From: Eledone cirrhosa
Taxonomy: Eukaryota
DNA length: 64,000 bases
Direction of reading: 5' to 3'
NCBI GenBank assembly: GCA_964016885.1
Contig: OZ024743.1
Location: 259,532,001-259,596,000, forward strand
In this document: positions 41,819 to 43,650 of the stretch, piece after piece
Position numbering within the stretch: position 1 is the stretch's first letter
How the letters are laid out: every line of letters starts with the position of its first letter
Notes under the pieces: model-generated
Told to the model about the DNA's origin: nothing
The model's input: only the letters and a program-made list of their open reading frames with translations
Databases searched by the model: none
Translations under genes and position numbers: made by a program

Positions 41819-42916
41819 TATATTCTTTATGACAGATGATATAAGACATAGTGGCAATCGGTAAACATATGTCTACAACATTAAGTTTTTCAATTTATAG
41901 TATCGTTATTCATGAATTTACCAACATATTTTAGTATTCTACCAGACAATATTTCTTTTACAAATATTTCTTTGTAATGAAAGCGGTATATATGCTTTGA
42001 CTACATGTATTTGTATATTCGTAAGATTGTACCTTTTCCGAGTTGGAATATTTTTGAGTTTTATAAATTCAAGAATTGCATATAATGAATAATTTCGTCG
42101 TTTACGTATATTTCCCAAATGCCTACTAAAAAGTTATTTCAGAGATGAAACCAAATTGGTCGAAGTTGTCATATCTCTTGTCGTAAATAAAACATATAGT
42201 CTCTACTAGTTGGATTAGAGGCGTCGATATTTGAAACATAATATTCAACATATTATAGGAATGTATGCACACACACACACACACACAAATCTACACGTCA
42301 CATTAGCAGCTTGATACTGTCCTCGGGTCTATCATATTGATTACAACTTAGAGCCGATCATCTACAAAACATCTTTTATGTTCGATATTGAATACATTTC
42401 CAATTCACAACGAAAACGTATTAATTCTTACAAAATATATTATAGCTCTTTTGCTTTATAAATAAGTGGTCTACATAGTTTAGAATTTGTTTCCAGATGT
42501 GTTCAATATATTTTACACTTGTTGCTGTGTATCACTTACGTATATCGAAAGATTTTCTCACAGCCTTCCACGCTAGGAAAACCTTCGAAATAAAATGAGC
42601 TTCACCGTCGGGTTTACCTGTTATGAATATAAGAACATAATATAAATATTATACTGATGGATCCGTAGGAGCAACGTTGTGCTGTACATAACGATCAAAT
42701 CTATTACAGTCAGTTTGTTCGTGGGAATGATAAAAAGTTACGCCCGCACGCTCAATCAGACACACACATGCATATATATAAATATATATATATATATATA
42801 AATATATATATATATAAATATGTATATATATATATATATATATACATTATGAAGAGAGAAGAAACATTTAGATATAATTAGTAATAAAATGTATCATACC
42901 TAAACTGTTCCTAAAT

Positions 42917-43004
42917 TCCTCGACTACGTAGTTTCGTGGCATAAACAAAAACAATATATCAAAGATATAGAGTCCTTGCGAGGTCTGCCGACTTATCAAG
43001 AGGA
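42917..43004 (-). ncRNA. Type I HHR, U3-A8 core, palindromic stem III (copy 1)
   Basis: tcctc|TTGATAA|gt-c-ggca...tgcc-ac|GAAA|ctacgtag|TC|gagga. Confidence 0.8.
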
Positions 43005-43507
43005 TACCTCATTTTACTAGTCTCAAGAACGCGTCTACACGACGTGAGAAAGAATCCCAAAAGGCGGAGGGGGAGATAGTCACGCGATATAACGGTCGAG
43101 AAACAGAGCTAAGCCTCTTATAACCACGAAAAAAATACCACGGAGGCGGAGGGGGTATTCATATCGAGGCCGCAGAAGAGGTAGTGAAGAAGGCGAGAAG
43201 TATGAGTAATGGAAGCTTTCCAGTTGTCCCCACACTTCAAAGATTGCTCGACCAGAGGGAGTTATTAATACATTTAGAAACACACAGATACATGCGGACA
43301 CACACATATATACATGAATGCATCCGCACCCAACTGTGAGTTAAGGGTGCCAACTTCACCGATGTTGCTCAATGAATGACTGGGACAGACCAATTCAGTT
43401 TGAACCAGACTGAACCAGTATCAGAGTTAAAAATACATTATGAAGAGAGAAGAAACATTTAGATATAATTAGTAATAAAATGTATCATACCTAAACTGTT
43501 CCTAAAT

Positions 43508-43595
43508 TCCTCGACTACGTAGTTTCGTGGCATAAACAAAAACAATATATCAAAGATATAGAGTCCTTGCGAGGTCTGCCGACTTATCAAGAGGA
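43508..43595 (-). ncRNA. Type I HHR, U3-A8 core, palindromic stem III (copy 2)
   Basis: Identical to 42917-43004. Confidence 0.8.
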
Positions 43596-43611
43596 TACCT
43601 CATTTTACTAG

Positions 43612-43650
<39 letters not shown>

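Follow-up and report, generated by a model that had tools for sequence, protein, structure and literature searches.

The window analyzed here is a stretch of 64,000 nucleotides from Eledone cirrhosa (contig OZ024743.1), and on its minus strand, at 42842..43613, lies a 772-nt insertion equal to 1.31 turns of a 591-nt non-coding unit with a predicted hammerhead ribozyme. How do animal retrozymes of this kind re-enter DNA, and how do Penelope-like elements (PLEs) build their tandem and inverted insertions? The 591-nt family joins these two questions. Its copies are young, number in the thousands and stem from a short unit, which makes them a natural experiment, and their insertion record adds direct genomic evidence on the copying of retrozymes and of PLEs. 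On the basis of this record, it is probable that unit RNAs are cleaved, ligated into circles and copied in rolling fashion, with PLE-driven priming from both target strands at two sites. A more specific reading, which we offer tentatively and at slightly less than even chances, would make each insertion the record of one RNA circle, at times edited by ADAR, held on a PLE dimer whose subunits start at two dedicated sites, one per nicked strand, and roll simultaneously.

Two start sites and the ends of inverted insertions

We number the unit from the first base past the predicted cut (position 1, window 43512; position 591, window 42922). The sample comprised 140 loci, all from one contig (C1), in three sets: the first 40 clusters of core matches (set A), 60 consecutive near-site junctions (set B), and 40 consecutive far-site junctions (set C). 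At L039 and L144, both local duplications, the second half was excluded from the counts, as was a third arm at L215. The 3' ends of 217 of 230 arms were located at two internal sites, one around position 80 (near site) and one around position 245 (far site), joined to (TA)n. These ends were divided into 117 at positions 74-86 and 100 at positions 238-251; the other 13 were mostly internal or broken pieces. Genome-wide, exact junctions numbered at least 1,889 for the near site and at least 1,145 (142 + 1,003) for the far site. On the minus strand of the window copy, the near site occupies 43424..43439 (positions 74-89, AATGTATTTTTAACTC) and the far site 43259..43274 (positions 239-254, AATGTATTAATAACTC). 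The two are 165 nt apart, agree at 14 of 16 letters and have AATGTATTWWTAACTC in common, and the loose TA ends of sequencing run X2 coincide exactly with both of them, at window positions 43433 and 43268. The near site that was used in the window copy is the fixed 3' end of the insertion (42842..42848, minus strand), where ...AAUGUAU is joined to (AT)n.

Inverted insertions, in which two arms stand head to head, always combined one near and one far end. This was observed in all 78 two-ended cases among the 140 loci (78/78), irrespective of whether the locus came from set A (19/19), from set B, chosen by the near end (32/32), or from set C, chosen by the far end (27/27). Three further inverted insertions with very short far arms were also near-plus-far. 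Single arms in set A were split evenly (10 near and 10 far), so a free choice of site would yield like ends half the time.

The same rule was found in PLEs of this genome. Two families with intact open reading frames (ORFs), each in many copies, are inserted in (TA)n: family A, a 4,117-bp unit with a 1,217-aa ORF, and family B, a 3,531-bp unit with a 784-aa ORF and arrays of up to four units. We take both to be PLEs from the visible reverse transcriptase (RT) motif (YVDD/YRDD) and C-terminal GIY-YIG-like motif of their proteins; their Atlas neighbors carry HTH_animal, GIY-YIG and RVT_1, and Pfam and PDB sequence searches with the two proteins returned no matches. Among inverted insertions hand-picked from the genome listings of each family, ends at 510-514 were paired with ends at 553-569 in 9/9 cases for family A, and end 1207 was paired with end 1290 in 4/4 family B cases with both ends in hand (three more had one end unresolved). 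The sequence-only reading, an earlier account of the window, had proposed a PLE RT because of the shared TA targeting, and the end rule of these two intact families agrees with that proposal. The near-plus-far ends are the "tail" signature of PLEs, and they tie the retrozyme to PLE enzymology without sequence homology.

Might the unit instead belong to an autonomous PLE outside the sample, as its terminal repeat (pseudo-long terminal repeat, pLTR), with the copies being truncated partial tandems? The end rule is that of PLEs, the window contains inverted pLTRs of both family A and family B as solo pairs, and the comparison with PLEs covered these two families. At one locus (L250:2640-9431), family A ORF sequence is fused over 3 shared bases to a retrozyme arm, with near+near outer ends; this chimera may be a later deletion or a template switch, the latter being a possible pointer to the partner PLE, and it was unused as evidence. 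In 140/140 loci, however, the units run head to tail at 591 nt with no intervening ORF. Older subfamilies (72-83% identity) are equally ORF-free, and no short-stem version of the unit's hammerhead was found elsewhere in the genome, where a short-stem-II pattern gave only five deletion variants. The 5' flanks of single retrozyme arms match neither family, and derivation of the spacer from an autonomous PLE, named beforehand as what would overturn the retrozyme proposal, was not borne out for families A and B (best matches, 10-16 nt). As a description of the sampled copies the pLTR explanation is largely refuted, and we give it hardly any weight.

PLE sequences also surround the retrozyme copy. 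An inverted family B remnant with a GIY-YIG-like 221-aa frame, 87% identical to the young family, occupies 30509-31362. An inverted insertion of a family A relative covers window 62988-64000 and L190:1-120, with a canonical minimal hammerhead at 63926, and more such hammerheads are located on the minus strand at 47155, 51432 and 31510. A strict hammerhead descriptor finds none in young units of families A and B (L192, L208), although a motif is present in their older relatives within the window; in family A a hammerhead core persists, but its stem I is weak. PLE termini also form solo pairs, head to head, at 8062-8698 (family A ends 555/510) and 47314-47521 (family B ends 1290/1207), so the near-plus-far rule holds even in minimal, ORF-less insertions.

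A probable single template for each insertion

In set A, units of the same arm diverged by 0.42%, the two arms of an insertion by 0.34% and separate loci by 1.93%. Across the 140 loci, adjacent units differed at 32 of 3,064 common polymorphic comparisons, versus 768 expected from the pool. At minor-allele sites in sets A and B, arms were concordant at 104 sites in 32 loci. In L060, one A>G-rich haplotype was present in every unit of both arms, and its AA>GG marker had seven matches genome-wide, all inside L060 (four on one arm and three on the other). These data are best read as one sense-strand monomer having templated all units and both arms of an insertion.

The 150 arms in sets A and B had their 5' ends all around the unit, at 7-21 per 50-nt bin and with some clustering at about positions 6-28 and 167-186. 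The cut site was crossed by 128 of these arms, 59 of which crossed it twice or more, and junction crossings were without indel in 109/109 matched cases of set B, scored with an anchored pattern that would miss large scars. The family-wide ends and haplotypes back the earlier proposal that an RT may have run more than once round a circular template.

Intact junctions, scattered 5' ends and within-array likeness are also predicted by a linear multi-unit template, a read-through transcript of an array with its hammerheads uncleaved, for which no circle is required. Most arms are short, with 11/150 crossing three or more junctions, and unprocessed RNA was the main substrate of an anole PLE in vitro, with a proposed mRNA that carries several copies (Frangieh et al. 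2024, PMC11167929). A linear template lets arrays only shorten, yet near-identical young insertions reach about 9 units, and one arm holds 6.7 units (L238). The L060 haplotype has no source array in the assembly. Finally, A>G changes made at the RNA level on a linear multimer would be private to single units; instead, as described below, they are enriched in fixed variants and depleted in private ones. We regard a linear multi-unit template as unlikely.

A single cleaved linear monomer could also be copied repeatedly if the RT, on reaching the 5' end, jumped to the 3' end of the same molecule. Such a pseudo-circle accounts for one haplotype per insertion and for fixed A>G changes as well as a circle does, and the two are hard to separate by sequence. 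The mild cluster of 5' ends at positions 6-28 (11/150) fits it. It predicts scars or stops at position 1, and 5' ends did not accumulate at the cut site (2/150, versus 1.3 expected), nor was an indel present at the 109 matched crossings, large scars being outside that pattern. Jumping between different monomers is excluded by the 32 differences versus 768 expected. Repeated copying of a linear monomer thus appears quite improbable.

The spectrum of substitutions, scored against the commonest letter of each column, differed between variants fixed across an insertion and variants private to one unit. Among rare fixed variants, A>G accounted for 22/70 and T>C for 9 (P = 3e-4); among rare private variants, A>G accounted for 10/220 and T>C for 46 (P = 1e-3). 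The difference in A>G between the two classes was highly significant (Fisher, P = 1.4e-8), also when L060 and L058 were removed (16/62 versus 9/215, P = 3e-6). C>T was far less enriched (12/70 fixed versus 31/220 private), which weighs against selection for G-U-tolerant changes, since such selection should favor C>T too. ADAR converts adenosine to inosine (A to I), with a preference for a 5' U. A sense A>G excess limited to fixed variants is predicted by editing of monomeric sense RNA followed by repeated copying, and we lean toward the view that some template RNAs were A-to-I edited before being copied. The private T>C excess, an asymmetry opposite to that of the fixed variants, may represent RT error at U in each pass.

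The variants also bear on an origin at the DNA level, in which a single unit is inserted and then grows and is homogenized as a satellite (unequal crossing-over, gene conversion), and inverted arms arise by snap-back of the cDNA. Li, Clavereau & Pollet (2026, 10.64898/2026.07.22.740005) prefer local amplification for retrozyme tandems, and local duplications do occur here (L039, L144). A few inverted junctions are exact fold-backs (341|341, 176|176, 371|371), and 55/70 simple inverted insertions have arm lengths that fit snap-back, above the 46.7 expected by permutation (P = 0.016), a mild excess from which snap-back may contribute. The other 15/70 are impossible by snap-back of a single cDNA. 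DNA-level processes are strand-symmetric, whereas fixed (A>G) and private (T>C) variants are strand-biased, and DNA-level growth leaves the near-plus-far rule (78/78) unexplained. We consider an origin of this kind highly improbable.

Under rolling copying of a circle, multimeric transcripts would self-cleave at their hammerheads, and a host ligase would close the monomers into circles. A PLE RT-endonuclease, probably a dimer, would bind one circle and nick both strands of the TA tract. Synthesis of cDNA would begin from the near site on one target strand and from the far site on its complement, helped by pairing of AAURUAU with the TA primer, and each RT would travel round the circle and halt at a variable point. 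Joining of the two cDNAs head to head would give the inverted form; one productive start would give a single arm, such as the window copy. Some circles would have been A-to-I edited beforehand, which would leave the same A>G changes in every unit. If the more specific dimer reading set out at the start holds, the near-plus-far rule would be the mechanism by which PLEs in general acquire their tails, tandems and inverted structures, and host RNA editing would be a main source of heritable change in the 591-nt family.

Besides the excess of snap-back-compatible arms, several observations weigh against this reading. Six minor-allele sites were discordant between arms, versus the 104 concordant. 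The A>G result was weaker in set C (6/24 versus 3/52, P = 0.024; A>G versus T>C, P = 0.09), a 5'-U preference (12/18, P = 0.011) was unrepeated there (1/6), and altered A's were no more paired than other A's in the predicted fold (0.62 versus 0.61). The unit shares no sequence with the two PLE families compared. For the anole PLE (PAc), the hammerhead was dispensable, with uncleaved RNA the main substrate, and the RT start needed no target homology and had no strand difference in start site (PMC11167929); in the 2026 preprint, 1/9 predicted dimers cleaved in vitro. Rfam shows no hammerhead in the unit at the gathering threshold or at E <= 10, with weak miRNA-like matches only. This miss is probably due to the U3-A8 core and 60-nt stem II described below, and the basis of the ribozyme call is accordingly the core motif together with how well it is conserved.

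The window copy, its hammerhead motif and its family

Over 181 bp, the repeats at 42842-43022 and 43433-43613 match at every base, with an offset of 591, and (TA)n is located on both sides of the element (about 42772-42844 on the 3' side and 43614..43650 on the 5' side), as the sequence-only reading had it; its estimate of a 1.3-mer also agrees with the measured length. The copy is a single arm that begins at position 80 (3' end), makes one full turn and ends at position 491 (5' end), so the "repeats" consist of 80 fixed and 101 accidental bases. Their length is set by the stop in copying and is different at every locus, and we rejected the interpretation of the repeats as LTRs. Of what had been read from the ends, copying over more than one turn stands; the approximately 100 nt before the first cut are merely a copying stop, and the informative end is the fixed start, 80 nt after the second cut. 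With (TA)n on either side of the sampled insertions, target site duplications (TSDs) are unreadable.

The predicted circular monomer is one full unit, running from one predicted cut to the other (42922..43512, minus strand). Its GC content is 42% (247/591 G+C), and its minimum free energy when folded as a circle is -172.6 kcal/mol (z = -6.4 versus 40 shuffles). The longest ATG ORF within the insertion is only 75 aa, which leaves no protein-coding capacity and bears out the earlier view of the spacer; no tRNA was detected in the 64-kb window. Unit positions 358-368 and 440-450 (window 43145-43155 and 43063-43073) are two copies of CCCCCTCCGCC, and positions 96-108 (window 43405-43417) read TGGTTCAGTCTGG, without an obvious B box. 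We take the former to be GC-box-like (on the other strand) and the latter A-box-like, possible parts of an internal promoter.

Each repeat contains on its minus strand, as first noticed, a complete hammerhead motif, UCCUC-UUGAUAA-G...C-GAAA-CUACGUAG-UC|GAGGA; it is of type I and has a U3-A8 core. Motif 1 lies at 43508..43602 and the identical motif 2 at 42917..43011, with predicted cuts after 43513 (43513/43512) and after 42922 (42922/42921); two consecutive complete motifs are what Li et al. class as "active." The parts of the motif are a strand UGAGGU, stem I (UCCUC/GAGGA), the core UUGAUAA, an extended stem II, GAAA, and CUACGUAG. Stem II, previously described as branched, is instead a long extended stem of 60 nt with an internal loop, and its loop strand ACCUCG is pairable with the UGAGGU 5' of stem I in a predicted pseudoknot. 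The palindromic stem III had been thought to favor dimeric folding. It can fold within the monomer (3 bp and an ACGU loop), which makes a dimer an option and not a necessity.

Core positions were almost invariant across approximately 93 to 96 loci. In 14 aligned motifs, pairing was held in 93% of pair cells, and in 98.8% for the predicted UGAGGU/loop II pseudoknot. Two-sided covariation was almost nil among these 14 rows: one pair only, with a score equalled by 10/500 shuffles, and that pair is uninformative because the rows were chosen for non-G at position 1.1. The unit is likely a hammerhead ribozyme that would self-cleave at GUC.

A 31-nt hammerhead core had 5,045 exact matches genome-wide and its reversed control had none, which is compatible with neither chance nor local assembly duplication; the suspicion of a single-copy or duplicated locus thereby falls. 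The copies are dispersed in arrays at 591 spacing, of one to several units, in line with the predicted variable unit number. The 410-nt spacer gave 1,910 first-look candidates in the 3.0-Gb genome, and the 40 of these that were scored were essentially identical, many of them spaced 591. Older subfamilies, at 72-83% identity, surfaced through a changed-stem-I pattern search meant to find a partner PLE, and they keep the core and the ORF-free layout (30 of 56 matches examined). The unit sequence was also found in public sequencing runs of three organisms; no RNA run was listed among them, which speaks neither for nor against expression. In run X1, it formed one closed 621-nt contig (591 + 30; depth, 7.8), a shape that tandem DNA gives as well as a circle, the run type being unspecified. 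The unique flanks of the window copy were without read coverage in the runs searched. These data support assignment of the window copy to a young, abundant animal (non-LTR) retrozyme family, a known kind, and the original retrozyme candidacy is upheld by the copy number of the unit, its tandem arrangement, its non-coding nature and its type I hammerhead motif. In five copies (L185-L189), most of stem II is deleted; two pairs of these sit in both arms of one insertion, so a variant is again common to both arms.

Relation to other retrozymes and PLEs

In common with the non-LTR retrozymes of animals (Cervera & de la Pena 2020, PMC7229834; 2026 preprint), the family has non-coding units in tandem, each with a single type I hammerhead, a GC content below 50%, thousands of copies (approximately 5,000 in mussel), a highly self-paired predicted circle, and PLEs in the same genome. 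Its unit of 591 nt compares with 170-400 nt in PMC7229834 and is within the 51-972 of the preprint. Circles were shown for coral, mussel and axolotl retrozymes, and reverse transcription of the circle by a PLE was proposed, not shown (PMC7229834); the preprint links retrozymes to PLE pLTRs by homology. Both propose rolling-circle copying and mobilization by PLEs and, in the parts cited here, hold the circle template and the PLE enzyme as hypotheses only. Unlike the animal retrozymes described there, the 591-nt family is strictly (TA)n-targeted, with a U3-A8 core, a long stem II and a predicted pseudoknot, and it has two fixed start sites, the near-plus-far rule, and haplotypes and A>G changes that point to a single template. 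Plant LTR retrozymes are superficially similar in that two hammerhead-bearing direct repeats bound a 600- to 1,000-nt circle (PMC7229834; 2026 preprint). Their hammerhead is of type III, and they have true LTRs of fixed length, a primer-binding site (PBS), a polypurine tract (PPT) and a 4-bp TSD, whereas the 591-nt family has a type I hammerhead and a repeat length that varies by locus. Its copies are numerous and dispersed with scattered 5' ends, hence without true LTRs; PBS and PPT were not searched for.

The family shares its partial tandems and its inverted arms, set head to head, with endonuclease-containing (EN+) PLEs (PMC11167929; Craig et al. 2021, PMC8557442; PMC3846280), together with the ragged 5' ends, a tail at one end only, two internal RT start sites and a microsatellite bias; the one-end tail of inverted copies is described in PMC8557442 and PMC3846280. 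It differs in the absence of an ORF from the unit and in a tail of 165 nt versus 30-40. Starting at two sites is already known for PLEs: the anole RT starts at two internal sites, which form the boundaries of the tail seen in the genome, and the enzyme, for which a dimer is predicted, cuts and extends both target strands in vitro (PMC11167929). The start sites of the 591-nt unit are similar to the TA target (AAURUAU), whereas for PAc no homology is involved in starting. Our data favor a circular sense template; PMC11167929 instead proposes a linear mRNA with several copies, and antisense self-priming was considered by Arkhipova et al. (2013, PMC3846280). U3-A8 covariation is known from the Cercyon PLE of Schistosoma mansoni (Cervera & de la Pena 2014, PMC4209133), which also has the palindromic stem III and for which circular templates were proposed to explain more-than-unit copying. 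The Cercyon hammerhead is minimal, mostly single and heterogeneous; that of the 591-nt family is large, nearly invariant, tandem and young.

A retrozyme with two start sites, or inverted copies that are always near-plus-far, was not found in the literature examined, which excluded the supplements of PMC7229834 and of the 2026 preprint, and the literature search gave no prior description of hammerhead-circle, edited-retrozyme or PLE twin-priming patterns like those of this family. A 591-nt circle with two defined start sites would be a small substrate suited to the existing in vitro PLE assay.

Other sequences were also observed beside retrozyme copies; a window-wide repeat search was swamped by microsatellites. 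A self-inverted, TA-flanked element at 43651-43991 adjoins the window copy, is present in several other loci and has high depth in runs X2 and X5. Beside an old copy at L080 lies a 213-aa frame, which we take to be Helitron-like from its motif.
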